From NCBI GenBank assembly GCA_043817685.1, contig JBDRGQ010000016.1, positions 1 to 48,757 on the forward strand: a DNA stretch of 48,757 nt. Direction: 5' to 3'. A program made the translations under genes and the position numbers. Below, in pieces: positions 2,099-42,464 of this stretch; positions within the stretch are counted from its first letter, which is position 1, and each line of letters opens with the position of its first letter. The notes below the pieces were generated by a model. That model was not told the DNA's origin and did no database searches. It saw only the letters and a list, made by a program, of their open reading frames with translations. Origin of the DNA: a bacterium (lineage in GTDB: Bacteria > Patescibacteriota > Minisyncoccia > Minisyncoccales > RBG-13-42-11).

Positions 2099-2156
2099 GG
2101 GCGATGAAGGATAAACCCTCATTTTCACCTTCATTTTTATTATATAAAAACTCGGT
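2099..2156 (-). repeat. Two-hairpin REP-like element, copy A
   Basis: Minus strand: ACCGA GTTTTTAT ata ATAAAAAT GAAGGTGAA a ATGAGGG tttat CCTTCAT CGC. Confidence 0.75.
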
Positions 2157-2158
2157 TT

Positions 2159-3163
2159 ATGGTAAGGAAAATTGGCATAGATTTAGGTACTGCAAACTCT
2201 TTGGTTTTTATCCCTAAAAAGGGGATAGTCTTGCAAGAACCTTCTGTGGTTGCTATTTCTTTGGATGAAAATAGGATTTTAGCTGTTGGGGATGCGGCAA
2301 AAGAAATGACTGGTCGTACTCCTGATACGATAAGAGTTTATAGGCCATTGAAAGATGGTGTTATTGCTGATTTTAGAGTAACTCAGGCAATGCTTAGGTA
2401 TTTTATTGAGAGAGTATCTGGTTTTTGGAAAATGTTCAAACCAGAATTAATGATTGGGATACCGGCTGGAATTACTTCTACTGAAAAAAGAGCAGTTATA
2501 GAAGCTGCAATGAATGCAGGAGCTAAGCAAACTTTTTTAGCAAAAGAGCCTATTTTAGCAGCTATTGGAGCTTCTATCCCTATTAATTCATGTTCTGGTA
2601 ATATGATTGTTGATATTGGAGGTGGAACCTCTGAAATAGCTGTTATTTCTTTAGGTGGAATAGTGACTTGTAACTCTTTAAGGGTAGGAGGAGATAAAAT
2701 GGATTTAGCTATATCAGACTATATTAAAAAGAAATATAATTTAGCTATAGGAGAGCAAACAGCAGAGGAAATAAAAGTAAAGATAGGAACAGCTTTACCA
2801 GAGAAAGAAGAAAGGCAGTTAGAAATTAGAGGGAGAGATTTAATTTCTGGTTTACCAAGAACTGTTAAAATTTCTTCTAACGAGATATCAGAAGCTACGT
2901 ATGATATTATTAGTGAAATAATTCAGGCCATCAAATCGGTATTAAGAGATACTCCTCCAGAATTGTCAGCTGATATAATTGATAAAGGAATGATATTGTC
3001 TGGTGGGGGAGCTTTGGTAAGAAATCTATCAGAAAGAATATCACAAGAAACTGGAGTTCCTAGTTTTTTGGCAGAAGATCCTTTGCTTTGTGTTGCCAAG
3101 GGAACAGGAGTAGTTTTAGACAATTTGGATGCTTATAAAAAAAGCATAATGTCAAAAAAATGA
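2159..3163 (+). CDS. mreB: Rod shape-determining protein MreB/Mbl (paralog 1)
   Basis: IGIDLGTAN, EPSVVA, VDIGGGT, LSGGGA actin-like ATPase motifs. Confidence 0.95.
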   Translation: MVRKIGIDLGTANSLVFIPKKGIVLQEPSVVAISLDENRILAVGDAAKEMTGRTPDTIRVYRPLKDGVIADFRVTQAMLRYFIERVSGFWKMFKPELMIGIPAGITSTEKRAVIEAAMNAGAKQTFLAKEPILAAIGASIPINSCSGNMIVDIGGGTSEIAVISLGGIVTCNSLRVGGDKMDLAISDYIKKKYNLAIGEQTAEEIKVKIGTALPEKEERQLEIRGRDLISGLPRTVKISSNEISEATYDIISEIIQAIKSVLRDTPPELSADIIDKGMILSGGGALVRNLSERISQETGVPSFLAEDPLLCVAKGTGVVLDNLDAYKKSIMSKK

Positions 3164-4023
3164 TTATAGGCCATAAAAAACAATGGCAATTTTTAAAAAA
3201 GATATCTGAAACAGGAAATATTTCGCATGCTTTTTTATTTTCTGGACAGGAGAAATTGGGGAAGAAAAAAGTTGCTACAGAATGGATTTCTTTTTTATTC
3301 GGACAGGATATAGAGAAAAAAGCTCATCCTGATTTTATAATTATTGAGCCAGCCGGAAAAGAAATACAGATAGACCAGATAAAAGAATTAATAAGAAGCT
3401 TGTCTTTAAAGCCCCATTCAGCTCCGTTCAAAGCAGTCATTATAGATAAAGCTCATTTAATGAATCCAGAAGCTCAATCATCTCTTTTAAAAACGTTAGA
3501 AGAGCCTAAAGGTAACACATTATTGATTTTAGTGAGTGAAGAACCAAATCATCTTCTGCCCACTATCGTTTCCAGAGTTCAGACAGTTAAATTTTATCCA
3601 GTAGGGATAGAAGAAATGAAAAAGGGCTTAGGAGATAAGAGAACAGATTTAGAAGAAATATTTAACATATCTTTGGGCAGTCCGGGACAGGCATTGGATT
3701 TAACCTTAGACAGCCAAAAAAAAGCAGATTTTGATAAAAAGATTAAAGAAATAGAAAGTATTTCTAAGTCGGATTTATACCAGAGGTTTGAATACGTTAA
3801 AACGTTAACAGAAAACTCTCTGGATTTGAAAGAAACTCTTAAAGTATGGACATTTTATTTCAGAAATATTTTAATTTCCAAAATATCAGGAAAGAAAAAA
3901 GATGATTATCCCTTGGAAAAAATTAAGAAAATATTGCATTCAATCCAGTCAGCCAATTATTTAATATCCAACACAAATGTTAATTCAAGGTTGCTTTTAG
4001 AAACCTTGATGATAGAAATTTAA
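3160..4023 (+). CDS. holB: DNA polymerase III delta' subunit
   Basis: HAFLFSG, HPDF, IDQIKEL, LLKTLEEP, LLPTIVSR. Confidence 0.9.
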   Translation: MIIGHKKQWQFLKKISETGNISHAFLFSGQEKLGKKKVATEWISFLFGQDIEKKAHPDFIIIEPAGKEIQIDQIKELIRSLSLKPHSAPFKAVIIDKAHLMNPEAQSSLLKTLEEPKGNTLLILVSEEPNHLLPTIVSRVQTVKFYPVGIEEMKKGLGDKRTDLEEIFNISLGSPGQALDLTLDSQKKADFDKKIKEIESISKSDLYQRFEYVKTLTENSLDLKETLKVWTFYFRNILISKISGKKKDDYPLEKIKKILHSIQSANYLISNTNVNSRLLLETLMIEI

Positions 4024-4024
4024 A

Positions 4025-4579
4025 ATGCACAAAGAAATATTGCAAAAAATACAACCGGAAATAGATAAAGTTATTGTTTTTTTGGAAAGGGAATTTACTA
4101 AAATAAGGACAGGAAGAGCTAACTCTTCTTTGGTGGAAGACGTTGTGGTTGATTGTTTTGGTGAAAAATTTCCCTTAAAACAATTGGCCGCTATTTCTAT
4201 TCCAGAACCAAAACAAATCCTTATCCAGCCCTGGGATAAATCCTATGTGGAAGGAATAGTTGCAGCTTTGGAAAAAACAGGAGTAGGGGCAAATCCCATA
4301 GTGGACAAAGATTCAATCAGAATAAATCTTCCAGCTCTGAATGAAGATTATAGAAAAGAACTTCAAAGGGTTATTTCAGAAAAACAAGAAGAAGCCAGAA
4401 AGACAATAAGGCATTGGAGGGAAGAGGCCTGGTCAGAAATACAGGAGAAGAGCAAATCTGGAGAAATAAGAGAGGACGATAAATTCAGAGCGAAAGATGA
4501 TCTTCAAAAAATGGTGGATGAAGCAAATAAGAAGGTAGAAGATTTAGGAGAGAGAAAAAAACAGGAAGTTTTAGAATAA
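4025..4579 (+). CDS. frr: Ribosome recycling factor
   Basis: IRTGRAN, IQPWDKS, IRINLPAL. Confidence 0.97.
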   Translation: MHKEILQKIQPEIDKVIVFLEREFTKIRTGRANSSLVEDVVVDCFGEKFPLKQLAAISIPEPKQILIQPWDKSYVEGIVAALEKTGVGANPIVDKDSIRINLPALNEDYRKELQRVISEKQEEARKTIRHWREEAWSEIQEKSKSGEIREDDKFRAKDDLQKMVDEANKKVEDLGERKKQEVLE

Positions 4580-4582
4580 ATT

Positions 4583-5674
4583 ATGCTGACAATTATTATT
4601 GCAATAGTATCTATAATAGGATTGCTCGTTCTTCATGAACTTGGCCATTTTATAATAGCCAAGTTTTTCAAAATAAAAGTGGAAGAATTTGGCGTTGGTT
4701 ATCCTCCAAAGATATTCGGAAAGAAAATAGGGGATACTATTTATTCCCTGAATTGGCTGCCCTTCGGAGCCTTCGTCAGAATACCAGGGCCAGACGGAGA
4801 AGGAGAAAGCACAAAAGACGCCAAAGATTATGAAAGAAAGCCGGCTTGGCAGAAAGCCGCAGTTTTACTTGGGGGGGTCGTGTCTTTTTGGATAATAGCA
4901 GCCATTCTTTTGAGTATTGCTTTTTCAATAGGCGTTCCTAGAGCAATTTCAGATACAGAAACAGAAAATTTAGTAAATGTAAAAGTTCAGATATTAGCCG
5001 CTTCTCTGGATTCACCGGCCAAATCAGCAGGGTTGAAACCAGGAGACGCAATTACTGGATTCAGAGTCGGAGATTTGGAAGTTCCGATCCAAACAGTTGA
5101 AGAAGTCCAGGAATTTACCCAAGAATATAAGGGGCAGGAAGTTATTGTTCTGATTGACAGGGGAGAAGAATCTTTTGAAGCTCCTTTAACTTTAAGAATT
5201 GATCCTCCTGAGGATGAAGGTTCCTTGGGGGTAATGATAGTAAGAACGGCTGACCAATCTTATTCGTGGAAAGAAGCTCCTATATTAGGAATTCAATCAA
5301 CAGCAGATTTAACAGTTCAGGTTGTTGTCGGCTGGGGGAATGTTTTAAAAAGCTTGTTTACTGGAGAAGGAATGCCTGACGGAGTCCAGTTTATAGGTCC
5401 TATCGGAATAGGTTCTTTATTAAACCAGGCGGCTAAAATAGGTGTTAATTATTTTCTGCAGTTTATAGCGATGATTGCTATTTATCTGGCAGTCTTGAAT
5501 ATCCTTCCTATCCCTGCTCTGGATGGAGGAAGATTGGTTTTTCTGGCTATTGAGAAAATAAAAGGAAGACCCATTAACAGAAAAATAGAACAGAGGATAA
5601 ACGGCGCAGTTTTCTTTATTCTCCTAATTTTAATGGCTTTTGTTACAATAAAAGATGTAAGCAATCTATTTTAA
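4583..5674 (+). CDS. rseP: RIP metalloprotease RseP (M50 family, PDZ domain)
   Basis: HELGH, EFGVGYPP, NILPIPALDGG. Confidence 0.92.
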   Translation: MLTIIIAIVSIIGLLVLHELGHFIIAKFFKIKVEEFGVGYPPKIFGKKIGDTIYSLNWLPFGAFVRIPGPDGEGESTKDAKDYERKPAWQKAAVLLGGVVSFWIIAAILLSIAFSIGVPRAISDTETENLVNVKVQILAASLDSPAKSAGLKPGDAITGFRVGDLEVPIQTVEEVQEFTQEYKGQEVIVLIDRGEESFEAPLTLRIDPPEDEGSLGVMIVRTADQSYSWKEAPILGIQSTADLTVQVVVGWGNVLKSLFTGEGMPDGVQFIGPIGIGSLLNQAAKIGVNYFLQFIAMIAIYLAVLNILPIPALDGGRLVFLAIEKIKGRPINRKIEQRINGAVFFILLILMAFVTIKDVSNLF

Positions 5675-5675
5675 A

Positions 5676-6908
5676 ATGAAGCAATCTAAATTATTCACAA
5701 AAACCCTAAAAGAAGCTCCGAAAGAGGAATTAAGTATTAATGCGAAACTTCTTACCAGGGGAGGATTTATAGACAAAATAATGACCGGAGTTTATTCTTA
5801 TTTGCCTCTGGGATTTTTAGTTTTAAAGAATATCGAAGAAATAATAAGACAAGAAATGCAGAAAGTAGGGGGAGAGGAAGTTTTTCTTCCGGGTTTGCTT
5901 CCCAAAGAACCCTGGCAGAAAACAGATCGCTGGAAATATCCTGAAATGTTTAAATTGCAAAATAGATCAGGCAAGGAATTTTCTTTGGGATGGACGCACG
6001 AGGAAATAATAACTCCTTTGGTCCAGAAGTTTGTCCAGTCTTATAAAGATCTGCCTGTGTATGTTTATCAGTTTCAGGATAAATTTAGAGACGAATTAAG
6101 GTCTAAATCCGGACTTTTGAGAGGAGTAGAATTTATGATGAAAGATTTGTATTCTTTTCATTTGGATGAAAAAGATTTGGATAGTTTTTATTCCAAAATG
6201 ACAAAAGCTTATTTCCAGATATTCAAAAGATGCGGTTTGGAAAAAGAAACATTTTTGACCTTGGCCTCAGGAGGAGTTTTCAGCAAATATTCTCATGAAT
6301 TCCAGACAGTTACTCCTTTTGGAGAGGATGAAATATATTTCTGCTCCAAATGCAAGATAGCCGTGAACAAAGAAATAATAAAAGAGGAAAAAAATCAGTG
6401 TCCTCGGTGTAAAAACAAGAAACTGGAACTTAAAAAATCTATAGAAGTTGGTAATATATTCAAAATAAAAGACAGATTTACCAAAGCGTTTGATTTTAAG
6501 GTGAAAGATGAAAATGGAAAGGAAAAATATTTGTTAATGGGTTGCTATGGCATTGGCTTGGGCAGGTTAATGGGAACTATTATAGAGGTTCATAACGATG
6601 AAAATGGAATTATTTGGCCAGAAGAAGTATCCCCCTTCAAATTCCATTTAATTCCGGCAGGAGGAAAAGATATATTTAAAAAAGCTGAAAAGATATATCA
6701 AGACTTGCAGAAACAAGGAATTAAATTATTATACGACGACAGGGAAAAGTCTGTTGGTGAGAAATTTGCCGATGCGGATTTGATAGGCATTCCCAACAGA
6801 TTAGTGGTGAGTAAAGACACGCTTTCTAAAAATTCTCTTGAGTTGAAAAAGAGATTTAATAATAAGATATCTTTGATAAAGCTGGGTCAGCTTAAAAAGG
6901 TAATATGA
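5676..6908 (+). CDS. proS: Proline-tRNA ligase, short form without INS editing domain
   Basis: THEE, FRDELR, EFMMKDLYSF, GCYGIG. Confidence 0.93.
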   Translation: MKQSKLFTKTLKEAPKEELSINAKLLTRGGFIDKIMTGVYSYLPLGFLVLKNIEEIIRQEMQKVGGEEVFLPGLLPKEPWQKTDRWKYPEMFKLQNRSGKEFSLGWTHEEIITPLVQKFVQSYKDLPVYVYQFQDKFRDELRSKSGLLRGVEFMMKDLYSFHLDEKDLDSFYSKMTKAYFQIFKRCGLEKETFLTLASGGVFSKYSHEFQTVTPFGEDEIYFCSKCKIAVNKEIIKEEKNQCPRCKNKKLELKKSIEVGNIFKIKDRFTKAFDFKVKDENGKEKYLLMGCYGIGLGRLMGTIIEVHNDENGIIWPEEVSPFKFHLIPAGGKDIFKKAEKIYQDLQKQGIKLLYDDREKSVGEKFADADLIGIPNRLVVSKDTLSKNSLELKKRFNNKISLIKLGQLKKVI

Positions 6909-7966
6909 TTAATATGGTAAATAAATTACTTTCTTATCTTTCAGAAGACTTAGGTATAGATTTAGGTACTGCTAATTCTTTGGTTTATATGAGGGGAAAG
7001 GGGATTATAATTACTGAACCCTCGGTAGTAGCGGTTAACAAAAAAACAGGCCAGATTTTGGCCATTGGTCAGGAAGCAAAGAAAATGGTTGGAAGAACTC
7101 CAGCTCACATCGTTTCTACCAGGCCCTTGGTTTCAGGAGTGGTTTCAGATTTTGAAGTTACAGAGCAAATGTTGAAATACTTTATTGAAAAAGCTTATAA
7201 AAGAAAGTACTTAATAGGTCCTAGGCCAAGAGTGGTTGTTGGTGTTCCTTGCGGAGTTACAGAAGTGGAAAAGAAGGCCGTGAGGGATGCGACTAGGAAT
7301 GCAGGCGCCAGGGAAGTGTTTTTAGTGGAAGAACCAATGGCAGCTGCTATTGGAGCCAGATTACCGATCCAGGATGCAGGGGGTAATTTTATTGTTGATA
7401 TTGGAGGAGGGACTACAGAAGTTGCGGTGATTTCTTTGGGAGGAATAGTAATAGCAAAAAGTTTAAGAATTGCAGGGGACAAATTGAATGAAGATATAAT
7501 TCAGTTCGCCCAGGACGAATACAAGTTATTGATTGGAGAAAGAACTGCAGAGTCTTTAAAAATAGGAATAGGTTCTGCTTATCCTTTGAAAGAAAAAAGG
7601 CAATTGCCCATGAGGGGAAGGAACTTAGTAACAGGATTGCCAGAAGAAATATTAGTTTCTGACGAAGACATCAGAAGAGCTATGGAAAAATCCATAAAGC
7701 AGATAGTGGCCGAAATTAAAACTGCTGTGGAAGAAACTCCCCCTGAATTACTTGCCGATATTATGGCTTCTGGAATTTTCTTGGCTGGCGGAGGGTCTCT
7801 TTTAAGGGGATTGGATACTTTAATCCAGAAAGAAACAAAGATACCTACTAAAATTATAGAAGATCCAATGACTGCCGTGGCCAGGGGAGCTGGTATGATA
7901 TTGGAGAATCTAGACGATTTAAAAGACATTCTGGTGGAAACAGATAACTTGGATCCGCCGAAATAA
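6905..7966 (+). CDS. mreB: Rod shape-determining protein MreB (paralog 2; start may be 6914)
   Basis: LGIDLGTAN, EEPMAAAIGA, VDIGGGTTE, LAGGGSLL. Confidence 0.95.
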   Translation: MINMVNKLLSYLSEDLGIDLGTANSLVYMRGKGIIITEPSVVAVNKKTGQILAIGQEAKKMVGRTPAHIVSTRPLVSGVVSDFEVTEQMLKYFIEKAYKRKYLIGPRPRVVVGVPCGVTEVEKKAVRDATRNAGAREVFLVEEPMAAAIGARLPIQDAGGNFIVDIGGGTTEVAVISLGGIVIAKSLRIAGDKLNEDIIQFAQDEYKLLIGERTAESLKIGIGSAYPLKEKRQLPMRGRNLVTGLPEEILVSDEDIRRAMEKSIKQIVAEIKTAVEETPPELLADIMASGIFLAGGGSLLRGLDTLIQKETKIPTKIIEDPMTAVARGAGMILENLDDLKDILVETDNLDPPK

Positions 7967-7968
7967 AA

Positions 7969-8020
7969 GCCAATGAACTACATTCATTTCCACTTTCGCC
8001 TTAATAAATTAAAGCTCGGT
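7969..8020 (-). repeat. Two-hairpin REP-like element, copy B
   Basis: Minus strand: ACCGA GCTTTAA ttta TTAAGGC GAAAGTGGA AATGAA tgtag TTCATT GGC. Confidence 0.7.
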
Positions 8021-8022
8021 AC

Positions 8023-8307
8023 ATGATATCTAAAGAGGAGGTAAAACATATAGCTAAATTAGCCAGATTGGGCATTTCTGACAAAGAGATAACAAAATAC
8101 CAAAAAGATTTGTCTTCGGTTTTAGATTACATAGAAAAACTGGAAAGAGTTAATGTTTCAGGGGTAGAACCAACAAGTCATCCTTTTTCATCTGAAAATG
8201 TTGTTAGAGAAGACGAAGTTTTGAATAAAAAAGATAATGGGAAACTGGTGGATATGGCGCCTGATAAAAAAGATAATTACGTTAAGGTAAAGTCTATTTT
8301 AAAATGA
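8023..8307 (+). CDS. gatC: Asp/Glu-tRNA amidotransferase subunit C
   Basis: [23 protein letters not shown]. Confidence 0.96.
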
Positions 8308-9722: not shown

Positions 9723-10230
9723 CCAAGGAGCATTAGCTTTTCTTTTTAGCCCTCCTGAAGACGGGTGGTTTGGGATAGCGAGGATAGTTTTTCTGGCGGC
9801 CAGTTTTCTGTTGGTGGCAGGGATAATTTTCTCCTTGTCAAAAAGCAGTTATCTAAAATTATATTTTCTTGAAGATGCAGTTGAATTTTTAACTTTCAGA
9901 CCAAGTGGAGTAAAAAAACTTGTTAAGGCTTGGAATAAAATTAAGACAAGATTAGATAGTGGTTTGGAATCAGAATATAAATTAGCGGTGATAGAAGCAG
10001 ATGGAGTGTTGGATGATGTCTTAAGAAGAATGGGATACAGGGGAGAAAATTTAGAAGAGAGATTGGCGAAATTAACTTCTGCCACTTTATCTAATATAGA
10101 AAATATTAAAGAAGCCCATAAGTCCCGTACTAATATTTTACATAATCCTGACCAGGGTCTTTCTCTGGATGAGGCAAAAAAAATATTAGCTGTTTTTGAA
10201 AAAGCTTTCGAAGACATACAGGCTTTTTAA
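9700..10230 (+). CDS. Hypothetical membrane-anchored protein
   Basis: TM helix, [12 protein letters not shown]...GE...ERL...AHKSR pattern; overlaps gatA end. Confidence 0.7.
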
Positions 10231-10259: not shown

Positions 10260-10275
10260 ATATTTTGTTATTCAT

Positions 10276-27790: not shown

Positions 27791-28793
27791 GTATATTTGC
27801 TATTTTTATTAAGGACTGTTCCCTTTCCTTTTTTTCTTTGAACGGAACGCCATCTTTTAAATTAAAAGAAACTGTTCCTTCTCTCGGAGAATATTTATTA
27901 ATGTAAGCTATGTTAAATTTTATTTCTTTGAACAGTTTTTCGGTGTTCTTGAATTGTTTTTTTGTTTCTCCAGGGAATCCCACTATTACGTCCGTGGATA
28001 GATTTATATCAGGCATAGCTTTTCTTATCTTTTTAACTAAATCTTTGTAATTCTTTACGGTATATGGCCTATTCATTTTTTTAAGAATAATATTGTCTCC
28101 TGATTGCACGGGAAGATTTAAATATCTGGAAAAATGTTTTGATTCAGCTAAAGTTTTAATTAATTCATCGGAGAAGTTTTTAGGGTGGGGAGACATAAAG
28201 AATATTTTAAATTTTCCTGGAATTTCATCTATTAACCTAAATAGTTTTGAAAAGTTTATTTTTTTGTCTTTAGAAGATTTGTAATCATTAACATTTTGTC
28301 CCAATAGCCAGATTTCTTTAACTCCCTTTTTTACCGCTCTTTTAATTTCTTCTAGTATTTTTTTATGATCCCTGCAGATTAATTTACCTCTAGTGTAGGG
28401 GACAACGCAATAAGAACAGAAATTATTGCAACCGTTAGAAATAGGAATATAGGCAATTTTGGAAGAATAGTATTCTGGGGGACAGTTGAAATCTTTGTCT
28501 TGTTCCCAAATAGAATCAAACCCCTCTTTTAGTTTTTTTAAATCTTTTTTTAATACACATCCAGTAAGAATCGTTTTTATTTTCTTCTTCTTTTTTATCT
28601 TTTTAAACTTTTGGATTAGACCGAATATTCTGTCCACAGCAGGCTGTCTTACAGAACACATATTCACCACGATTAAATCTGCCTCATTAATATTTTGGGC
28701 CGATTTGTATTTCTTTCTTTCTAATCCAGAGGCTATTCTCTTTGAGTCCGCCTTATTCATCTGGCATCCGTACGTAATGATGTGGTACTTCAT
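27783..28793 (-). CDS. miaB: MiaB-family radical SAM methylthiotransferase (no TRAM domain)
   Basis: TYGCQMN, CNNFCSYC, IVGFPGET; adjacent to miaA. Confidence 0.9.
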   Translation of the reverse strand: MKYHIITYGCQMNKADSKRIASGLERKKYKSAQNINEADLIVVNMCSVRQPAVDRIFGLIQKFKKIKKKKKIKTILTGCVLKKDLKKLKEGFDSIWEQDKDFNCPPEYYSSKIAYIPISNGCNNFCSYCVVPYTRGKLICRDHKKILEEIKRAVKKGVKEIWLLGQNVNDYKSSKDKKINFSKLFRLIDEIPGKFKIFFMSPHPKNFSDELIKTLAESKHFSRYLNLPVQSGDNIILKKMNRPYTVKNYKDLVKKIRKAMPDINLSTDVIVGFPGETKKQFKNTEKLFKEIKFNIAYINKYSPREGTVSFNLKDGVPFKEKKEREQSLIKIANIHE

Positions 28794-28795
28794 AA

Positions 28796-28850
28796 ACCAA
28801 GTTTTTATTTATAAAAATGCAGATTGAAATGAAGCGTTAGCTTCATTAAG
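28796..28850 (+). repeat. Two-hairpin REP-like element, copy C
   Basis: ACCAA GTTTTTAT tt ATAAAAAT GCAGATTGA AATGAAGC gtta GCTTCATT. Confidence 0.7.
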
Positions 28851-28906
28851 CATAATACCGAGCTCTCATTTACCTCCCTATTTTAACAATAAAAATAACT
28901 GTTTTC

Positions 28907-30301: not shown

Positions 30302-30337
30302 AGTTTTTTGATTATTTAATTAATTTTCCGACCTTTC

Positions 30338-30368
30338 TATCTTCAATAAATATTAAATTTATCTCGAT
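30338..30368 (-). repeat. Partial two-hairpin element (first hairpin and linker only)
   Basis: Minus strand: ATC GA GATAAAT ttaat ATTTATT GAA GAT. Confidence 0.45.
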
Positions 30369-30370
30369 TA

Positions 30371-33810: not shown

Positions 33811-36800
33811 TTATGTTTCTATTATTTCTTCCACGTCTTCGCAAATTAATTTTAATATTCCGTCTTTGGAATCAATTCTTCCAGAAACCATGACTATTTT
33901 GTTTTCTTGGAAGGCAGTCGGTTTTCTTTCAATAATCCCTGGAAAGACTACAACTTCTATTTTATCGGTCAAGTCTTCAAGGTTAACGAAAAGCATTGGT
34001 TTGCCGGTTTTGGTTATTATTTTCTTTATTTTAGAAATTATCCCTCCTATTTTAACTTTTTGCCTGGTCGTTGTTGAGAGGCTTGATATTGCAGTAGACT
34101 TTTTATCCAATAATTTTTTAAAGCCTCTTAGGGGGTGGCTACTAACAAATAATCCCAATAAATCCTTCTCCCAAGCTAACATTTCTTTTTCTGTGGCAGG
34201 TTTGGCGTCTTCTAGCCTGATAGAAGAGTTTATCTTCATCTCATCGAAAAGTCCAGTTTGTCCATTATCTTTGCTTTTTTGGTTTTCTCTGGCGTATTCT
34301 AGAAGTCTCTCCATATTAACCAGCACTTTATTCCGTTCCTCCATCTTATCAAAAGCGCCGGATTTTATTAAGCTTTCTAAAGACTTTTTGTTCAGATCCT
34401 TGCTATTTACTCTGGAGACGAAATTCTCAATAGATTCGTAAACACCATTAGCTTTTCTTTCTTCCACTATGGTCTCCACAATTCCAGACCCCACATTTTT
34501 AATCGCTGACAGTCCGAATCTAACCTGGTTTTTCTTGGGGACAACGCTGAAAAAGGTAAAACTTTCGTTAACGTCCGGAGGTAATACTTCCAAACCCATT
34601 TTTTTACATTCTTGGATCAGTACGGATATTCTGTCTATATCATTCCTTTCAGAAGTTAATAAGGATGCCATGAATTCAGCAGGGAAGTGAGTTTTTAAAT
34701 AAGCTGTCTGGTAAGCAATAGTAGCATAAGCTGCAGCATGGGATCTATTGAATGAATAACTGGCAAAAGGCTCTATCCAGTTCCAGATTTGTTTTGCCAC
34801 GTTTTCACTTACGTCGTTTTTCTTCATCCCGGAAATAAACTTTTCTTTTTGATCCATTAAAAGTTTTTTAATTTTTTTTCCGATAGCTTTTCTCAATATA
34901 TCAGCTTCTGCCAAAGTAAAGCCTGCTAATTCCTGGGCTATTTTCATTATTTGTTCTTGGTAAATTGCAATTCCCTGGGTTTTTTCAAGAATAGATTTTA
35001 GTTTTGGGTGCAAATAGGTAACGGGCTGTTTTTTGTTCTTTCTGGCAATATAATCTGGGATAAGCTGCATAGGGCCTGGTCGGTAAAGAGCGACCATGGC
35101 AATTATATCTTCAAAATCGTTTGGTTTTAATTGTTTTAAATATCTTTGCATACCACCAGATTCCAATTGAAACACGCCAATTGTATCTCCTTTTTGAAGC
35201 ATTTTATAAGTATTTTTATCGTTGGGAGGAAGTTTTTCAATATCTACGTTAAACCCTTGGACTTTGTATATTCTGGCTAAGGTATCTTCTATAATAGTTA
35301 AGTTTTTTAATCCCAAAAAATCCATTTTTAAAAGCCCCAAGTCTTCAATAGAATGCATTTCATACTGGGTCACAATGGCATTGTCATCTTGAGTTGGGTG
35401 CTGAAGAGGCACTACCTCATCTAGGGGAGTATTGGATATTACAACTCCGCAAGCATGGGTGGAAGCATGTCTGGCTACTCCTTCCAGTTTTTTAGCAAAA
35501 TCAATAAGTGTTCTGGCTTGTTCGTCTGATTGATAGAGTTCTTTGAATTCTGGAACGGATTTCATTGTTTGATCTAAAGACATTCCAAAAGGAATCATTT
35601 TAGCTATCTGGTCGCAATAAGAATAGGTGTAGGCCAAAGCTCTTCCTACGTCTCTTATAGCGGCTCTGGCTGCCATAGTTCCGAAGGTTATTATCTGGGC
35701 CACTTTATCTCTTCCGTATTTTTCTGCAACGTACTGGATAACTTCATCTCTCCTTCTATCAGTGAAATCCAAATCAATATCTGGCATCGATATTCTGTCT
35801 GGGTTTAAAAATCTTTCAAAGAGGAGATTGTATTTTAAAGGGTCAATATTTGTGATTCCAATAAGGTAGGCGACCAAAGATCCTCCGACAGAACCTCTTC
35901 CCGGTCCCACAACGATCCTGTTCTGCTTTGCCCAGTTTACGAAATCCTGGACTATTAGAAAGTAGGAAGAGAATCCTGTTTGATTTATAACGGATAATTC
36001 GTAGTCCAGTCTTTCTTTAACCTCTTTATCCGGATTTTTATCATAACGTTTTTCAATTCCCTGGTAACAAAGTTCTTCTAAATATTTTTCTGGGGTTTGT
36101 CCATCAGGAGTTTTAAATAGCGGAAGTTTTGTAACTCCTAATTCTATTTGCAAGTCGCACATGTCTACTATTTTTTGGGTGTTCTCTATGGCTTCCGGGA
36201 ATTCTTTAAAAAGCTCTATCATATCTTCAGGACTTTTCATCGAAAAATCATCCGTAGTTAGACTGAGTCTTTCTGGGTCGTTTGGATCAGACCCAGTATT
36301 AATAAGCATTAAAATGTCTTGGGCTTGGGCATCTTCTTTTTTCAAATAATGGATGTCGTTGGTGGCTACCAAAGGTATTCCGTGTTTTTTGGATATTATT
36401 TGCATTCCCTCGTTGGCTTTTTTCTGTTCTGGAGAATTAGGATGGATTTGCATGTCCAAATAAAAATTACCGCTTCCGAAAATTTCCTGGTATTTTAATG
36501 CGGCTTTTTCCGCTTCCGCCATTTTGTTAGCTAATATCAATCTTGGAATTTTACCAGCCAGACAGGCGGATAATCCTATCAATCCTTCCGAGTATTTTTC
36601 CAGCAATTCTTCGTCTATCCTTGGCTTATAATAAAAACCCTCGAGGTGGGCTTTAGTTATTAGTTTAACCAGGTTTTTGTATCCTGTTTCGTTCTTGGCC
36701 AGTAATAATATATGGTATCTTTTGTCGTCTACGTTCGGACGTTTGTCCGTCATTTTGTCTAAGCTCTGGTATATTTCGCATCCTATTATAGGTTTTATTC

Positions 36801-36972
36801 CTTTTTCCTTGGCTTTTTTATAAAACTCTATGGCTCCATATATGTTTCCGTGGTCGGTCAGGGCTAGGGCTTCCATACCTAATTCTTTTGCTCTATCCAA
36901 AAGTTCGTCTATTTTAGCTAAACCATCCAAGAGGGAGTAGTGGCTGTGGACGTGTAAATGAGTAAACTTCAT
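33811..36972 (-). CDS. dnaE: DNA polymerase III alpha subunit
   Basis: PHP HLHVHSHYSLLDG, GPGRGS, MPDIDLDF, FNRSHA. Confidence 0.98.
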   Translation of the reverse strand: MKFTHLHVHSHYSLLDGLAKIDELLDRAKELGMEALALTDHGNIYGAIEFYKKAKEKGIKPIIGCEIYQSLDKMTDKRPNVDDKRYHILLLAKNETGYKNLVKLITKAHLEGFYYKPRIDEELLEKYSEGLIGLSACLAGKIPRLILANKMAEAEKAALKYQEIFGSGNFYLDMQIHPNSPEQKKANEGMQIISKKHGIPLVATNDIHYLKKEDAQAQDILMLINTGSDPNDPERLSLTTDDFSMKSPEDMIELFKEFPEAIENTQKIVDMCDLQIELGVTKLPLFKTPDGQTPEKYLEELCYQGIEKRYDKNPDKEVKERLDYELSVINQTGFSSYFLIVQDFVNWAKQNRIVVGPGRGSVGGSLVAYLIGITNIDPLKYNLLFERFLNPDRISMPDIDLDFTDRRRDEVIQYVAEKYGRDKVAQIITFGTMAARAAIRDVGRALAYTYSYCDQIAKMIPFGMSLDQTMKSVPEFKELYQSDEQARTLIDFAKKLEGVARHASTHACGVVISNTPLDEVVPLQHPTQDDNAIVTQYEMHSIEDLGLLKMDFLGLKNLTIIEDTLARIYKVQGFNVDIEKLPPNDKNTYKMLQKGDTIGVFQLESGGMQRYLKQLKPNDFEDIIAMVALYRPGPMQLIPDYIARKNKKQPVTYLHPKLKSILEKTQGIAIYQEQIMKIAQELAGFTLAEADILRKAIGKKIKKLLMDQKEKFISGMKKNDVSENVAKQIWNWIEPFASYSFNRSHAAAYATIAYQTAYLKTHFPAEFMASLLTSERNDIDRISVLIQECKKMGLEVLPPDVNESFTFFSVVPKKNQVRFGLSAIKNVGSGIVETIVEERKANGVYESIENFVSRVNSKDLNKKSLESLIKSGAFDKMEERNKVLVNMERLLEYARENQKSKDNGQTGLFDEMKINSSIRLEDAKPATEKEMLAWEKDLLGLFVSSHPLRGFKKLLDKKSTAISSLSTTTRQKVKIGGIISKIKKIITKTGKPMLFVNLEDLTDKIEVVVFPGIIERKPTAFQENKIVMVSGRIDSKDGILKLICEDVEEIIET

Positions 36973-36991
36973 AGTATTATGTAAGTATAGT

Positions 36992-37612: not shown

Positions 37613-37632
37613 TCTGATAGGATGTATTTATT

Positions 37633-37917
37633 ATGGCAGTACCGAAACAAAAACACACAAAATCAAGACGCAATAAAAGAAGGAGCCAGATTTTTTTAAA
37701 GACTGCAACCCTTACTGTTTGTCCAAAGTGTAGAAAGCCTGTTTTACCTCATACGGTTTGCAAAAACTGCGGTTATTACAAAGGGACGGAAGCCATAGAT
37801 GTAATGAAGAAATTGAGCAAAAAGGAAAAAAAGTTAAAAGAAAAAGAATTAGCTTCGAAAGAAGCGGAAGATAAAAAAGGAAAAGATTTAAATCTTCAAA
37901 ATTTGTCAAAAAAATAA
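37633..37917 (+). CDS. rpmF: 50S ribosomal protein L32 with C-terminal extension
   Basis: MAVPK, CPKC...CKNCGYY. Confidence 0.96.
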   Translation: MAVPKQKHTKSRRNKRRSQIFLKTATLTVCPKCRKPVLPHTVCKNCGYYKGTEAIDVMKKLSKKEKKLKEKELASKEAEDKKGKDLNLQNLSKK

Positions 37918-37920
37918 GAA

Positions 37921-37961
37921 CTTTTAATATTGAAAATGTAGATGAATTTTAAATTCATCGT
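37921..37961 (+). repeat. Possible degenerate two-hairpin element upstream of nusB
   Basis: AT-rich hairpin followed by GATGAA ttttaaa TTCATC G, which resembles stem 2 of the family. Confidence 0.35.
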
Positions 37962-37978
37962 ATACAGATTCTTAATAT

Positions 37979-38437
37979 ATGGCATCACGTCATTTATCAA
38001 GATCCATATCCATGCAGAGCCTGTATGAATGGGATTTCGGAGACAGAAAGGGGGATTTGGAAAAAATAACAGAAAAGAACGTAAAGGAATTCGGTCCTGG
38101 CCTAGGGGACCAGAGTTTAGTCTGGCAGATAATAACAGGAGTTATAAAGCATTTTCCCCAATTGAATAAGATTATCGAAAAAGCAGCTCCTGAATGGCCA
38201 ATAGACCAGATTACAATTGTAGATAGGAATATTTTAAGAATAGGACTTTATGAATTGCTTTATGCCAATAAAGACGAAGTTCCTCCTAAAGTAGCTATTA
38301 ATGAAGCAATAGAATTGGCGAAGTCTTTCGGGGGAGAAAGTTCAGGAAGGTTTGTTAACGGAGTATTGGGGACAGTTTATAAAGAACTCGGAAATAAAGA
38401 ACCAAAAGAAGAAAAAGTCGAAGAAAATAAAAAATAA
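37979..38437 (+). CDS. nusB: Antitermination factor NusB
   Basis: [27 protein letters not shown]. Confidence 0.97.
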
Positions 38438-38504
38438 TTTGTTGGATTATTACCTCGTTATCTTATTTTGCAAGGTAACCGGATAATAAACTGACAACAA
38501 AAAG

Positions 38505-39188
38505 TTGAAAGAGTTTAAAAATTTAGAAAAGAAACTAGGGATAAAATTCAAAAAAAAGGATCTGTTGGCCCAAGCTTTCTGTCACAGGTCTTACCTTAAT
38601 GAGAATCCAGATTGTAAATTGGATAATAACGAAAGATTAGAATTCTTAGGGGATGCAGTGATAGAGCTTATAGTTACAGAATTCCTTTTTAAAAAATATC
38701 TTGATAAGCCGGAAGGAGAATTAACCAGTTGGAGAGCCTCTTTGGTCAATGCCAAAAAACTTTTAGAAATGGCTTCAAAATTAGGATTCAACGATTATTT
38801 GTTGCTTTCTAAGGGAGAGGCCAAAGAAATGGGAAAAGCCAGACAGTATATTCTAGCTAATACATTTGAATCTTTTGTCGGGGCAGCTTATTTGGACAAA
38901 GGATATAAAGTTTGCGAGCAATTCATTAAAAAACATTTATTGTCAGAGCTCCCAGAAATTATTGAGAAAGGACTGTACCGAGATAGCAAATCTTTTTTCC
39001 AAGAAAAAGCCCAGGGGAAAACAGGCATTACCCCGATATACAAAATATTAAGGGAATCCGGTCCTGATCACGCTAAACACTTTACTGTTGGCGTTTTTCT
39101 TGATAAAAAGCTGATAGCCGAAGGATCAGGCTCTTCCAAACAGGAAGCAGAGGAATCAGCCGCAAAAAAAGCATTATATAAAAAATAA
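38505..39188 (+). CDS. rnc: Ribonuclease III (TTG start)
   Basis: NERLEFLGDAV, dsRBD with GPDH and SKQEAE. Confidence 0.97.
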   Translation: MKEFKNLEKKLGIKFKKKDLLAQAFCHRSYLNENPDCKLDNNERLEFLGDAVIELIVTEFLFKKYLDKPEGELTSWRASLVNAKKLLEMASKLGFNDYLLLSKGEAKEMGKARQYILANTFESFVGAAYLDKGYKVCEQFIKKHLLSELPEIIEKGLYRDSKSFFQEKAQGKTGITPIYKILRESGPDHAKHFTVGVFLDKKLIAEGSGSSKQEAEESAAKKALYKK

Positions 39189-39189
39189 T

Positions 39190-39708
39190 ATGTTAGTAAT
39201 AAGATTTTTCAGAACAGGAAAAAAAAACCAACCATCTTTCAAGATAGTTGTAACGGAAAAAACAAACTCTTCTACAAGAGGTCGTTTTATCGAACAGGTC
39301 GGTACTTATAATCCAACGACGAAAGAAAAGACCTTAAATGTAGAAAGAGTCAAATATTGGATTGGAGTAGGAGCTCAGCCCTCTGAAACAGTCCACAATT
39401 TATTGGTTTCAGAAAAGGTGATAGAAGGAAAGAAAATAGACTTGCACAAAAAATCAAAGAAAGAAGCTCCGAAAGAAGAAATAAAACCAAAAGGAGAAGA
39501 AACTCCGGTAGCGGAACCTGCTAAAGAAGAACAATCTGCCGGGGAAGAAAAACCTGCAGAAGAGAAAAAACCAGAATCTGGAAAACCAACAGAAGAAGCT
39601 CTGGCAGAGAAACCTACTAAACTAACGGAAAAAAAGCAACCCGAAGAAGTTCTTCAAGAAGAATCAAAGCCGGAAAAAAAATCTGAGAAAACTCTAAAAA
39701 CTGAATAA
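39190..39708 (+). CDS. rpsP: 30S ribosomal protein S16 with long E/K/P-rich tail
   Basis: RTGKKNQP, GTYNP, GAQPSETV. Confidence 0.95.
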   Translation: MLVIRFFRTGKKNQPSFKIVVTEKTNSSTRGRFIEQVGTYNPTTKEKTLNVERVKYWIGVGAQPSETVHNLLVSEKVIEGKKIDLHKKSKKEAPKEEIKPKGEETPVAEPAKEEQSAGEEKPAEEKKPESGKPTEEALAEKPTKLTEKKQPEEVLQEESKPEKKSEKTLKTE

Positions 39709-39719
39709 ACTTTCTCCCA

Positions 39720-39747
39720 TTGACAAATTAGAAATATACGATATAAT
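39720..39747 (+). promoter_or_regulatory. Promoter of three-ORF island
   Basis: TTGACA-N16-TATAAT. Confidence 0.8.
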
Positions 39748-39756
39748 AAAGTCATA

Positions 39757-39770
39757 AAAGAGGAGAGAAT
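39757..39770 (+). repeat. Left arm of 14-bp inverted repeat bracketing the island
   Basis: AAAGAGGAGAGAAT is the exact reverse complement of 40896-40909. Confidence 0.8.
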
Positions 39771-39887
39771 CTTTTTAAAAATATGACCAGACGGTTCTCT
39801 CTAAGAGACCGCCTGTTTGTTTATAAAAAAACCGAGCGTTAGCTCGTTAAAATATATATATTATTTTAAAGGAAGGAGGTCACGAGC

Positions 39888-40172
39888 ATGCATAATTCTG
39901 TGAAGAAGAGACCATTGTGCGAGCTCACGGCCTGGGCGAATCCTTTGCTAGATATAGATGAAGGGCGTAAAAACAATCGTAAAAAATTCATCGATATCGC
40001 AGCAAAAGAAAGTCCCAGTAAAACCTTTGAGCTAGTTGCGGCCATGGCTTATAATTACGGCTTTGGCCCTGAATTGGTCCAAAAGGTGGCCCGAGCTGCA
40101 CGCTGGCTGGCTATTATCCTTAGGGATTACGGTCAGGCAGAATTTGACAAGCTTACAGAAGGAAAAAGGTAA
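39888..40172 (+). CDS. Hypothetical protein (94 aa)
   Basis: SD AAGGAGGT at 39873-39880. Confidence 0.65.
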   Translation: MHNSVKKRPLCELTAWANPLLDIDEGRKNNRKKFIDIAAKESPSKTFELVAAMAYNYGFGPELVQKVARAARWLAIILRDYGQAEFDKLTEGKR

Positions 40173-40229
40173 TCTAGTTCACGTCCACAGAGAATCTGGA
40201 TTTATCTCTACGGACACGAAAGGAGTATA

Positions 40230-40406
40230 ATGAGAGGGTTACGTAAGGGAGAAAAAGAAAATCTCAGAAAGTCCATGGAAATATTAAAGAAAAGCAATAT
40301 TGTAGCTTTTAGTCCTGATGGTCGCCCAATATCCAGGCGGGAAATGGAAGAAATCATAAAAGAAGATCCTCACAAGAGATGGGATAATTGTGGAACACAA
40401 CTTTAA
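40230..40406 (+). CDS. Small hypothetical protein (58 aa, not in ORF track)
   Basis: SD AAGGAG at 40220-40225; MRGLRKGEKENLRKSMEILKKSNIVAFSPDGRPISRREMEEIIKEDPHKRWDNCGTQL; flanked by hairpins. Confidence 0.6.
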   Translation: MRGLRKGEKENLRKSMEILKKSNIVAFSPDGRPISRREMEEIIKEDPHKRWDNCGTQL

Positions 40407-40532
40407 TCCCTGAATCCTTCCTAGGGAAACTGATTTTCTAATTACCTCAGTTTCCCTCCACCCCTTAATCTGTAAACGATTTATGGGTTAAGGAGTGTAA
40501 TTAAGAATTTACAATACAAAAGGAGGTTGGTA

Positions 40533-40850
40533 ATGACTACGTTTGAAGTCAACCAAGAAGCGGTTAAATTGGCTAACGAATTGTTAGGAATAGGCAGAAT
40601 ATACATCGGAATTTCTAGATTTTCTCTTCTTAGTTTTTCCAAAAAAATGGGAAAACTAAAGAATGGAGAAATTCATGCTGGAGATATGATATTGCCTTTA
40701 ATTTCTAAACTGCGTAAAAAAATACGCAACTCCGAAAGACTTCATGATATGGATAAAGATCGCTATCTTTTCATTATTGAGAGGATAGAAAGAGAGTATT
40801 ATCAATCTCTCAGCACCAAACATTTAGTCAATCAGGGGAGGGGAATTTAA
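40533..40850 (+). CDS. Hypothetical protein (105 aa)
   Basis: SD AAGGAGGT at 40520-40527 supports ATG 40533. Confidence 0.65.
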   Translation: MTTFEVNQEAVKLANELLGIGRIYIGISRFSLLSFSKKMGKLKNGEIHAGDMILPLISKLRKKIRNSERLHDMDKDRYLFIIERIEREYYQSLSTKHLVNQGRGI

Positions 40851-40868
40851 AAATAATAATCCTCCCCT

Positions 40869-40926
40869 CCAACCACTTGCCAAGGAAAAAGATATATTCT
40901 CTCCTCTTTCCTTGGTAGCTGGTTGG
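40869..40926. other. Large hairpin ending the island; contains right arm of the inverted repeat (40896-40909)
   Basis: CCAACCA-c-TTGCCAAGGAAA / TTTCCTTGGTAG-c-TGGTTGG. Confidence 0.75.
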
Positions 40927-40928
40927 CA

Positions 40929-40957
40929 TTGACACAGCATTGTAATTTTTCTAAAAT
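40929..40957 (+). promoter_or_regulatory. Promoter of khpA
   Basis: TTGACA-N17-TAAAAT. Confidence 0.7.
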
Positions 40958-41046
40958 ATTGAGTGTAGTAGCTCTTAGGTTCTCCTAAGTTTGAGGGAAT
41001 CCTGAAAGGTCGCAGCTACTTAGATAGACTAAACTAGCAGAATATT

Positions 41047-41370
41047 ATGGCAGATAAAACACCTACTGATCAAGAACTGTTAGAGTACATTGTGAAAGCT
41101 TTAGTCGATCATCCTGAAGATGTCAAAGTTGACCGCAAGGTTGACGAAATGGGAGTTTTACTGACTTTGAAGGTAAATTCCGAAGACATGGGTCAGATAA
41201 TCGGAAGAGCTGGATCAACCGCCAGATCTATTAGAAATTTGGTGCGAATCTCAGGTCTTAAGAATCACGCTAGAGTGAACTTAAAGATTGAAGAGCCCGA
41301 AGGCGGAAGAGGACCAAGAATTCAAAGACCCGCCGAAGGCGCAGAAAGTCTTGATGACTTAAAACTCTAA
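41047..41370 (+). CDS. khpA: KH-domain RNA-binding protein KhpA
   Basis: LVDHPEDV, DMGQIIGRAG; located between rpsP and trmD. Confidence 0.92.
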   Translation: MADKTPTDQELLEYIVKALVDHPEDVKVDRKVDEMGVLLTLKVNSEDMGQIIGRAGSTARSIRNLVRISGLKNHARVNLKIEEPEGGRGPRIQRPAEGAESLDDLKL

Positions 41371-41386
41371 AAATATTAGTTGACAC

Positions 41387-41440
41387 ACCAAACTTCCAAA
41401 GGAAGTGTAGGTGAAAAAGAGGATTTGTCCTCTTTGACTA
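41387..41440 (+). repeat. Two-hairpin REP-like element, copy D
   Basis: ACCAA ACTTCC aaa GGAAGT GTAGGTGAA AAAGAGGA tttg TCCTCTTT GACTA. Confidence 0.75.
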
Positions 41441-41442
41441 AG

Positions 41443-41483
41443 AGAAAGACAGTGTTATCATTAATGAAACACTGTTTTTCTTT
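41443..41483 (+). terminator. Long hairpin, probable terminator after khpA
   Basis: AGAAAGACAGTGTT...AACACTGTTTTTCT plus T-run. Confidence 0.6.
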
Positions 41484-41535
41484 GCCGATTTTGTTCAAAA
41501 AAGGAGGCGAGAAAAGAGATATTCCTCTTTGACTA
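41484..41535 (+). repeat. Two-hairpin REP-like element, copy E
   Basis: GCCGA TTTTG tt CAAAA aag GAGGCGAGA AAAGAG atattc CTCTTT GACT-ATG. Confidence 0.7.
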
Positions 41536-42197
41536 TGTTGAAATTCGACATAATTACAATTTTCCCCAAGATATTTGATTCTTATTTAAAAGAGACGTTT
41601 ATTAAAAAATCCCAGGATAAGAAATTGATCAAAATAAACGTTCATAATCTTAGGGATTATACAAAAGATAAGCATAAAAAGGTGGATGAAAAACCTTTTG
41701 GTGGAGGATTGGGCATGGTTTTGAAAGTAGAACCTATTTTTAGAGCTGTTAAAAAGATTAAAAAAGGAAATAAATCTAAAGTAATATTATTTACCCCAAG
41801 AGGGAAAGAGTTTAACCAAAAAACAGCTTATGAATTATCTGAATACAGTCAATTAATAATGATTTGCGGAAGGTATGAAGGAGTGGATGAAAGAGTGGCA
41901 AAACATATAGCAGATATTGAATTGTCCATTGGGAAGTATGATCTAATGGGAGGAGAACTGCCTGCCATGGTATTAATGGAAACTGTTACAAGATTAATCC
42001 CAGAAGCCATAGGGAAAGACAAGTTTTTGAAGGAAAGGATAACTAAAAACAAGGGCTTTATGGAATATCCTCAATATACTAGGCCAGAAGTGTTTGAACC
42101 TAAAAAGGGGACTAAATGGAAAACGCCAAAAGAGCTCATTTCTGGCAATCATAAAGAGATAGAAAAATGGAGAGAAAAGAGGGGTAAAGAGATTTGA
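41535..42197 (+). CDS. trmD: tRNA (guanine-N1)-methyltransferase
   Basis: FDIITIFP, PFGGGLGMV, CGRYEGVDER, GGELPA, YPQYTRP. Confidence 0.97.
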   Translation: MLKFDIITIFPKIFDSYLKETFIKKSQDKKLIKINVHNLRDYTKDKHKKVDEKPFGGGLGMVLKVEPIFRAVKKIKKGNKSKVILFTPRGKEFNQKTAYELSEYSQLIMICGRYEGVDERVAKHIADIELSIGKYDLMGGELPAMVLMETVTRLIPEAIGKDKFLKERITKNKGFMEYPQYTRPEVFEPKKGTKWKTPKELISGNHKEIEKWREKRGKEI

Positions 42198-42231
42198 AAA
42201 ATAACTAAAAATAGTATAGAATATCAATGTT

Positions 42232-42314
42232 GGGCAGATGGCAGAGCGGTCAAATGCATCAGACTGTAAATCTGACGACTTCGGTCTACGGGGGTTCGAA
42301 TCCCTCTCTGCCCA
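42232..42314 (+). tRNA. tRNA-Tyr(GTA)
   Basis: GGGCAGA/TCTGCCC acceptor stem, TCAGA-CTGTAAA-TCTGA, long variable arm; promoter TTGAAA-N17-TAGAAT at 42194-42222. Confidence 0.96.
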
Positions 42315-42354
42315 CATAAGTTTTTTAATATCTTTTGATATTCCAAAAATTATT

Positions 42355-42464
42355 AGGTAGATGAAGGTGAGAATCACCGCTCGGGAGGAAGGGGGTTAGA
42401 ATGCCGAGCTGGTTCAGCGAGGCGAGAGATGATGATTACCTCATCGAACACCTCTCTGCCCACA
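42355..42464 (+). other. tRNA-Tyr-derived fold-back element
   Basis: Ends with a 19/21-identical copy of the tRNA-Tyr 3' end and begins with a degenerate inverted copy of it. Confidence 0.7.
42403..42448 (+). repeat. Two-hairpin REP-like element, copy F
   Basis: GCCGA GCTG gtt CAGC GAGGCGAGA GATGA tgattacc TCATC GA. Confidence 0.75.

Follow-up and report, generated by a model that had tools for sequence, protein, structure and literature searches.

Ultra-small bacteria of the candidate phyla are usually regarded as streamlined, with little room for selfish DNA. Small structure-dependent repeats are represented by REP/BIME (repetitive extragenic palindromes and bacterial interspersed mosaic elements) with their RAYT (REP-associated tyrosine transposase) enzymes and by IS200/IS605-derived PATEs (palindrome-associated transposable elements), which make no target duplication, lack inverted terminal repeats and carry strand-asymmetric hairpins. 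Here we describe a family of folded repeats of 48-60 nt in a patescibacterial genome, starting from a window of 48,757 nt, i.e. the whole stretch of DNA that was analysed (contig JBDRGQ010000016.1 of assembly GCA_043817685.1, positions 1 to 48,757). We consider it probable that the copies represent a mobile, selfish and non-autonomous palindromic element, akin in kind to the Rickettsia palindromic elements (RPE) and to REP-like repeats.

RPE are palindromic repeats of about 150 bp in a reduced genome, located between genes and also in frame within unrelated housekeeping genes, where they add a peptide to the protein (PMC10969869). No transposase is known for them according to the part of that article consulted, which credits Ogata 2000 and 2002 (PMC10969869). 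[quoted passage not shown] A different kind of repeat is formed by TD-1 and TD-2 of Treponema denticola, whose function is given as unknown in the consulted section of their description; TD-1 coincides in part with the reverse complement of TD-2 and is mostly found 5' of genes, and TD-2 was judged by the authors to be probably an RNA (PMC1950547). We found no published report of repeats like those described below in candidate-phyla bacteria, in a literature search for which subscription journals were mostly out of reach.

Copies, fold and distribution of the repeat

The genome that holds the window as its contig C16 (G000) consists of 507 kb in 21 contigs with 35% G+C and a completeness score of 100%. 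The nearest candidate-phyla records of its GatA protein were Parcubacteria/Paceibacterota metagenome-assembled genomes with 56-59% identity, which gives an approximate placement, and the sequencing runs with related sequence were groundwater and biofilm metagenomes. Copies were searched with covariance models in G000, in three congeners (G001, G002, and G003), and in a survey of relatives that comprised 41 genomes with 136 candidates scored per genome. The first model (R1) was bootstrapped from copy A alone, aligned to itself, because MAFFT misaligned hairpin 2; R2 was built from 14 G000 copies as aligned by R1 and run on the window with filters off, and R3 is a model of a short subfamily. Genome counts refer to a significance cut-off of E<=1e-4.

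The original prediction, made from the letters of the window, had proposed six copies and three partials with a common architecture of RCC, RA, stem-loop 1, a purine linker, stem-loop 2, and a short tail. This architecture was present where it had been placed, and the first five copies (A-E) were clearly recognized with 38-68 bits, while the sixth (F) was borderline and none of the partials was significant. The features are as follows.

2097..2156, minus strand: copy A, 60 nt; R2 68.5 bits (model match 2097-2157)
7969..8020, minus strand: copy B, about 52 nt; R2 54.2 bits (model match 7966-8021)
28796..28853, plus strand: copy C; R2 60.2 bits (model match 28795-28853)
41387..41441, plus strand: copy D; R2 60.8 bits, R3 33.4 bits (R2 match 41386-41441)
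41484..41536, plus strand: copy E, degenerate; R2 38.1 bits (model match 41483-41536)
42403..42448, plus strand: F, borderline and similar to the short subfamily; R2 19.8 bits, E 0.0038 (match 42402-42451)
37919..37965, plus strand: possible decayed relic, one of the three partials; R2 16.2 bits, E 0.033, in the window alone

The extent of copy A follows from comparison with its empty site and is two bases longer at the 3' end than first assumed. Under R3, F scored 12.9 bits (E 0.068), and four of its hairpin 2 pairs were non-standard. The possible relic at 37919-37965 was not significant in the genome-wide R2 scan, and in R2 scans of the window the partial at 30324-30369 (minus strand) scored 12.6 bits (E 0.29) and the one at about 38451-38483 had no match at E<=10.

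One strand of each unit folds into a closing helix of 3-4 bp, a GA/GAA internal loop, hairpin 1, a purine linker, hairpin 2, and a CGCC-like tail. Hairpin sequences vary among copies and subfamilies with pairing retained, and the unpaired GA (5' side) and GAA (3' side) are almost invariant, i.e. the proposed internal loop is real and highly conserved; it might act as a protein-recognition motif, as had also been suggested. The stems were analysed in 141 copies of a high-copy relative (G015, completeness 100%, sampled for 400 kb of its 0.8-Mb genome). In this alignment, which was fitted to the model and thereby favours pairing, standard pairs occupied 97.3% of cells compared to 81.6% in shuffles, and cells altered on both sides numbered 338 versus 92. 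Two-sided change was seen in 16 of 17 pairs, all three helices covaried, and none of 500 shuffles matched the observed value on any of five covariation measures, whereas pairing fell to 42-55% when the partners were slid by 1-3 columns. The closing triplet was AU in 93, CG in 31, and GU in five cases, with U-A at the second position, and a fourth closing pair is present in the short subfamily. Covariation of the stems and of the closing triplet had both been part of the original claim and are well supported by these data. On the strand chosen in that claim, G.U pairs outnumbered A.C in three genomes (14:5, 17:10, and 49:25; binomial p 0.007 for 49:25), an excess that might be inflated by models built on the same strand and that suggests this strand to be the folding one.

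In G000, 23 matches to R2 were found in 507 kb, after a first motif scan had already located three further clear copies on other contigs. Among the 41 genomes, 27 had matches: in the family of G000 (f1) it was present in 21 of 24 other genomes, and among the 16 genomes of the order outside this family two had multi-copy sets (19 and 10 matches) and three more a single weak match. Copy numbers in relatives ranged from zero (G003 of the same genus, G010, and G012) to at least 131 and at least 134 in the two highest. The 141 matches in G015 correspond to 132 distinct loci and 7,734 bp of 400,000 bp, or about 2% of the sampled sequence, with densities of up to one copy per 3 kb. No match at E<=1e-4 was obtained in any of 150 other genomes of the same class, and the family is, by these model searches, lineage-restricted. 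The second hairpin is mostly ATGA/TCAT in G000 and mostly AAGA/TCTT in G015 (129 of 141 copies at that pair); such lineage-specific variants indicate amplification within lineages and point to each lineage having multiplied its own predominant subfamily.

This distribution also bears on the trivial explanation that chance hairpins or ordinary terminators had been grouped by eye. AT-rich intergenic DNA readily forms hairpins, and F and the three partials are weak. However, E-values down to 5e-16, the 150 control genomes without a match, and the 500 shuffles refute such a grouping for copies A-E, and we regard it as hardly credible overall.

Several motif-based identities of the fold were considered and rejected. 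A kink-turn is disfavoured by inspection, given that the consensus GG(U/G) after GAA pairs Watson-Crick with the 5' CC, and a simple 2x3 internal loop fits better. The hammerhead core was likewise not found by inspection, and there was no Rfam match. The loops of hairpin 1 are unconserved on inspection and thus offer no conserved -10 box, which speaks against a promoter or leaderless start. A small open reading frame (ORF) behind the Shine-Dalgarno-like linker was discarded, also by inspection, with unconserved peptides and the ATG missing in G015 copies. Finally, hairpin 2 might have been copied from the first codons of the neighbouring gene, by target duplication or a start-codon switch, but when same-copy pairs were tested against permuted ones, G000 and G001 gave no significant result, and that of G015 was inflated by arrays.

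Copies also occur in higher-order arrangements. At L061 in G015 (contig C7, 6390-6590, minus strand) four short-subfamily units form a head-to-tail array with a 48-nt period, in which the closing helix of each unit borrows the tail of the preceding unit. At L076 (G015, contig C2, 15064-15161) a complete copy is nested in the hairpin 1 loop of another, just after CAT, and nine composite loci in G015 consist of two overlapping copies in opposite orientation. A regular-expression count in the 400 kb of G015, which is noisy, gave 248 hairpin-2-like halves and 163 5' halves and hints at a related single-hairpin repeat in this genome; the scan for solo halves was too noisy for further use.

Three smaller features of the window deserve mention. 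Five nucleotides after copy C, a short fragment at 28856-28866 (plus strand) is identical to the 5' end of the element (TACCGAGCT) and may represent a second copy that is truncated. At 45590-45625 (plus strand; R2 16.5, R3 15.5 bits) a solitary hairpin similar to hairpin 2 lies within the ORF 45396-46625 and may be a partial, coding-internal copy. The GC-rich hairpin at 39818-39845, upstream of the gene at 39888, starts with the element letters ACCGAGC and is preceded by an A-run (a T-run on the other strand); it resembles an ordinary minus-strand terminator.

Filled and empty sites

Mobility is indicated by orthologous loci, where precise presence/absence differences were observed between congeneric genomes, a comparison that the original prediction had called for. 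Copy A is missing in G001, G002, and G003, all of which have the flanks directly joined at mreB, so that a block of exactly 60 nt without any duplication sets the filled site apart. Copy B, upstream of gatC, is absent from the same three genomes, again with no duplicated flank, and the orthologous site of copy D is empty in G001. At the miaB-like locus of copy C, G001 has a different copy with another stem 1 and G002 has none. The G001 flank alignment runs through copy E, which, judging from the lengths, is probably also present there. Besides D, clean empty junctions were aligned in G001 (40 contigs, 380 kb) for C15:18413, C7:3115, C6:42507, and C1:25499, and the reverse, i.e. sites filled in G001 and empty in G000, was found for L093:2613 and L114:5416. 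A set of 24 G000 copies was compared with G001 (the 23 at E<=1e-4 plus C6:65788 with E 0.0012). For about 14 of them both flanks fell on a single contig, and no fewer than nine of these looked empty from the flank spacing. Contigs of a groundwater run (X3) also joined 2093/2095 to 2157 across copy A and 7967 to 8032 across copy B, at a likeness of at least 85% and possibly from other species.

None of the filled/empty junctions examined contained a target-site duplication or an A-tail, and in the alignments the element ends were not inverted repeats of each other. On the element strand, junctions usually read TCAT plus two bases, followed by the element. The left flanks of the 141 G015 copies share T-T-C-A at a fixed distance, which resembles the 3' end of the element itself, and T-T-C is kept in the 40 copies located within coding regions. 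At L114:5416 the TCAT at the insertion is not a gene start.

Besides being tolerated in very short intergenic spacers, the element also enters protein genes. A 48-nt copy in secA of G000 adds 16 residues that are absent from SecA of G001, the two proteins being otherwise nearly identical around the site. In G015, 40 of the 141 matches lie strictly within long open frames (23 sense, 17 antisense), and their host genes, recognized by eye from translations, include those for a penicillin-binding protein, MurF, an aminotransferase, FtsQ, and an alanyl-tRNA synthetase (alaS-like). The inserts add about 16-20 hydrophilic residues in frame. Fifteen of the 17 antisense internal copies are read in one and the same frame, which gives an acidic stretch followed by serines. 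Whichever way it is read, the palindrome GAAGAAGA/TCTTCTTC specifies Glu/Asp followed by Ser, and this may explain why such insertions are tolerated.

Positions close to start codons are frequent. A start codon is only a few bases away from 11 of the 24 G000 copies and from 33 of the 141 G015 copies, which are antisense to the gene; many are 2 nt upstream, because the target TCAT is the reverse complement of ATGA. The association with start codons is not a sign of regulation. Orientation relative to genes showed no strong bias, with antisense to sense ratios of 39:28 between tandem genes and 26:28 inside genes, i.e. without a clear gene-direction bias of the IS200/605 kind, gene direction being a proxy for a replication-orientation bias.

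The window copies are placed as follows. Copy A separates conserved promoter-like boxes from mreB, whose ATG (2159) is 2 nt away, and is antisense to this gene. Copy B occupies the spacer that runs from the stop of a second mreB paralogue (6905-7966) to gatC, which has its ATG at 8023, and is antisense to either gene. Copy C, again antisense, precedes by 2 nt the start codon of a MiaB/RimO-like radical-SAM gene (ATG at 28793, minus strand). In sense orientation, copy D follows 16 nt 3' of a KH-domain (KhpA-like) gene and copy E reaches the ATG of trmD (41535), and F sits between tRNA-Tyr and tRNA-Thr. Pfam confirmed MreB, GatC, and TrmD as neighbours, and UPF0004 plus Radical_SAM for the MiaB/RimO-like gene. 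We interpret the window copies as passengers in 5' leaders and spacers and not as dedicated regulators.

Two further observations concern the genes next to the copies. The window encodes two full-length MreB/Mbl paralogues (2159-3163 and 6905-7966) that are 4 kb apart and each score about 455 bits to PF06723; each has an element copy just upstream or just downstream. Most window genes lack a Shine-Dalgarno sequence (e.g. 33811-36972 on the minus strand, 36992, and 20784), and several have a TATAAT-like box just 5-10 nt before the ATG, a proximity that suggests leaderless or very-short-leader mRNAs in G000.

A functional structured RNA acting on neighbouring genes, i.e. a 5' leader, translational regulator, RNA-stability element, or small RNA like TD-1/TD-2, would account for the strong covariation, the conserved purine internal loop, the one-strand excess of G.U over A.C, and the many copies that end near start codons. 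A weak resemblance to TD-2 (RF03162, clan CL00124) points in the same direction: it was the best Rfam match, with 27.5 bits for the L072 copy and 17.2 bits for copy A versus a gathering score of 48.7. Nevertheless, in the start-codon cases the best-folding strand is antisense to the gene and the mRNA carries the complement, copies occur in both orientations with many of them in coding regions, and the flanking genes (mreB, gatC, miaB-like, trmD, and secA) are unrelated. Moreover, the congeners in which A, B, and D are missing have retained the same genes, one congener has no copies at all, and the G001 orthologue of copy J is degenerate with broken stems, so the structure is not maintained at a given site. 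We thus consider a structured RNA of this kind quite unlikely. The element had originally been called mobile or regulatory; the first term is supported by precise presence/absence and by copy numbers from none to more than 130, and the second is not supported, given the two orientations, the coding locations, and the lack of conservation at orthologous sites.

Candidate enzymes and proposed mode of movement

If the copies are a mobile element, as we prefer to read them, an enzyme acting in trans is to be expected. The original prediction pointed to HUH enzymes (RAYT or IS200/605 TnpA), and several features would be explained by a miniature element of REP or IS200/IS605 origin (PATE) with a Y1 HUH transposase as its mover: neither target duplications nor terminal inverted repeats, a hairpin near each end, asymmetry of the ends, a short target 5' of the left end with similarity to the right end, and head-to-tail arrays with a 48-nt period. 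However, PF01797 (Y1 HUH) had no match in G000 or in three of the five highest-copy genomes (G015 with its at least 134 copies in the survey, G017, and G021), and it is present in the copy-free G010 and in several element-free families of the order. An HUH gene flanked by copies was not seen, and the gene-direction bias of such elements is lacking. The proposed HUH link thus finds no support, and movement by such an enzyme appears unlikely, although a very divergent one, or one provided by an unsampled phage or plasmid, is conceivable. A profile search for Y2_Tnp gave no signal in the genomes searched, control genomes included. In 19 of the 41 genomes (G002, G005, G006, G009, G010, G013, G014, and others) there are ORFs of 150-285 residues that are positive for PF01797, with the match confined to the C-terminal two thirds of the profile; the occurrence of these ORFs shows no relation to that of the element.

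A small retro-mobile RNA, similar to SINEs (short interspersed nuclear elements) or retrozymes and propagated via reverse transcriptase, would agree with the compact RNA-like fold and the G.U excess, and the succession of GA, helix, and GAA recalls, by inspection, the helix II junction of hammerheads. Yet RVT_1 occurs in only seven of 41 genomes, among them the copy-free G003, and was not found in G015, G021, G017, and G016. Ribozyme matches in Rfam are missing, as are duplications or A-tails at insertions, and we view retro-mobility as very unlikely.

Other candidates for the mobilizer were examined as well. PF07282 (TnpB) was present in two of the 41 genomes only. A phage vector was rejected: no model match was found in 105 viral loci pre-selected for the core motif (80 + 25, among the matches listed). 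A phyletic approach yielded 132 G000 ORFs without a tblastn match in G003, a list that is contaminated by assembly gaps as it contains IF3. Ten of these were run through Pfam, eight chosen for their match in G015 and two for other reasons, and gave PCMT, HD, peptidase S51, IF3, PMT_2, a BadF-type ATPase, an HTH protein, DUF5667, TPR, and a serine recombinase, none of which is a credible mobilizer. Separately, an ORF of 314 residues at L002 (G000, contig C7, 1573-2517, minus strand) lies between two element copies and looks like an rve-type integrase or insertion sequence transposase; G001 contains a partial match to it and G003 no match.

Several results weigh against a mobile element and have to be set beside the presence/absence differences. 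No mobilizing enzyme was found among the transposase families tested: PF01797, RVT_1, the TnpB domain, and resolvase did not track copy number across the 41 genomes, and IS110 and rve were not found in the five highest-copy genomes. Self-BLAST of the 400 kb of G015 revealed no long autonomous version, multi-copy gene, or insertion sequence, and no transposition event was directly observed. The lack of a clear orientation bias and the possibly inflated G.U excess add to these points. A copy-specific likeness between the left flank and the element's own 3' end was detected in G015 only (z 4.1), where tandem arrays inflate it, and was absent in G000 and G001. Furthermore, perfect pairing in copies with very different stems exceeds what a simple burst followed by decay would predict, and either selection on structure to some degree or several master copies must be assumed.

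In spite of these points, we retain the non-autonomous mobile element as the probable identity of the copies. It would move as a folded single strand, a trans-acting enzyme would recognize the CCGAG...CGAAGG junction and hairpin 2 by shape, and this enzyme would cut beside a target resembling the element's own 3' end (TTC-R-N...). Such cutting of a folded single strand by a structure-reading enzyme next to an own-end-like target is a tentative scheme, which we put at about one chance in three. Beyond that, the repeat might represent a new class of bacterial mobile element, i.e. a folded unit of 48-60 nt without recognizable transposase, perhaps moved by one of the cell's housekeeping nucleic-acid enzymes or by some unknown nuclease that recognizes the GA/GAA junction, and remodelling the proteomes of Patescibacteria with short hydrophilic loops in essential proteins; we see this as a possible but doubtful extension.

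Relation to known repeats

The repeat makes up about 2% of the sampled G015 sequence and resides inside secA and alaS-like, murF-like, and ftsI-like genes, despite the view of these bacteria as streamlined. Hundreds of young copies together with many empty sites make its mode of movement testable. On the practical side, genome assemblies of these lineages will be broken at such repeats, gene starts will be called falsely, and protein alignments will contain spurious "insertions".

Regarding annotated families, the description as uncharacterised holds: a scan of the window at Rfam gathering thresholds returned only tRNAs, and E-value scans of three copies and one array against ribozymes and riboswitches of Rfam 15 gave only weak, unrelated matches. 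The element shares with TD-1 and TD-2 a multi-copy, lineage-specific occurrence, two adjacent hairpins, covariation, and variable stems. In TD-2, however, the CGAG/CUCG bases pair, whereas GA and GAA of the element are unpaired, and TD-2 has a further 5' hairpin. By these alignments the element is not a member of TD-2, and the two Treponema motifs may be the same kind of thing, which we note as a lead.

MITEs resemble the element in being non-autonomous, abundant, and at times intragenic or upstream of genes, but they possess terminal inverted repeats and target-site duplications made by DDE enzymes, neither of which was found here. REP and PATE sequences are closer in their ends, given the lack of target duplications and terminal inverted repeats, the subterminal hairpins, and the short target 5' of the left end, and the mechanism proposed above resembles the logic of IS200/IS605 and REP. 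They differ in that the element has no associated Y1 HUH gene, is found inside coding regions, and combines two different hairpins joined by a conserved internal loop.

By analogy, the nearest known counterparts are the RPE, which are likewise short palindromic repeats of a reduced genome with intergenic and in-frame insertions in unrelated genes and no known transposase. The element is set apart from them, as far as RPE are described, by its length (48-60 nt versus about 150 bp) and its host phylum, and also by the two-hairpin fold with a GA/GAA loop, a TCAT-proximal target, and a far higher density (132 loci in 400 kb). The repeat of these Patescibacteria would thus be a second, independent, and much denser case of coding palindromes of the Rickettsia type.

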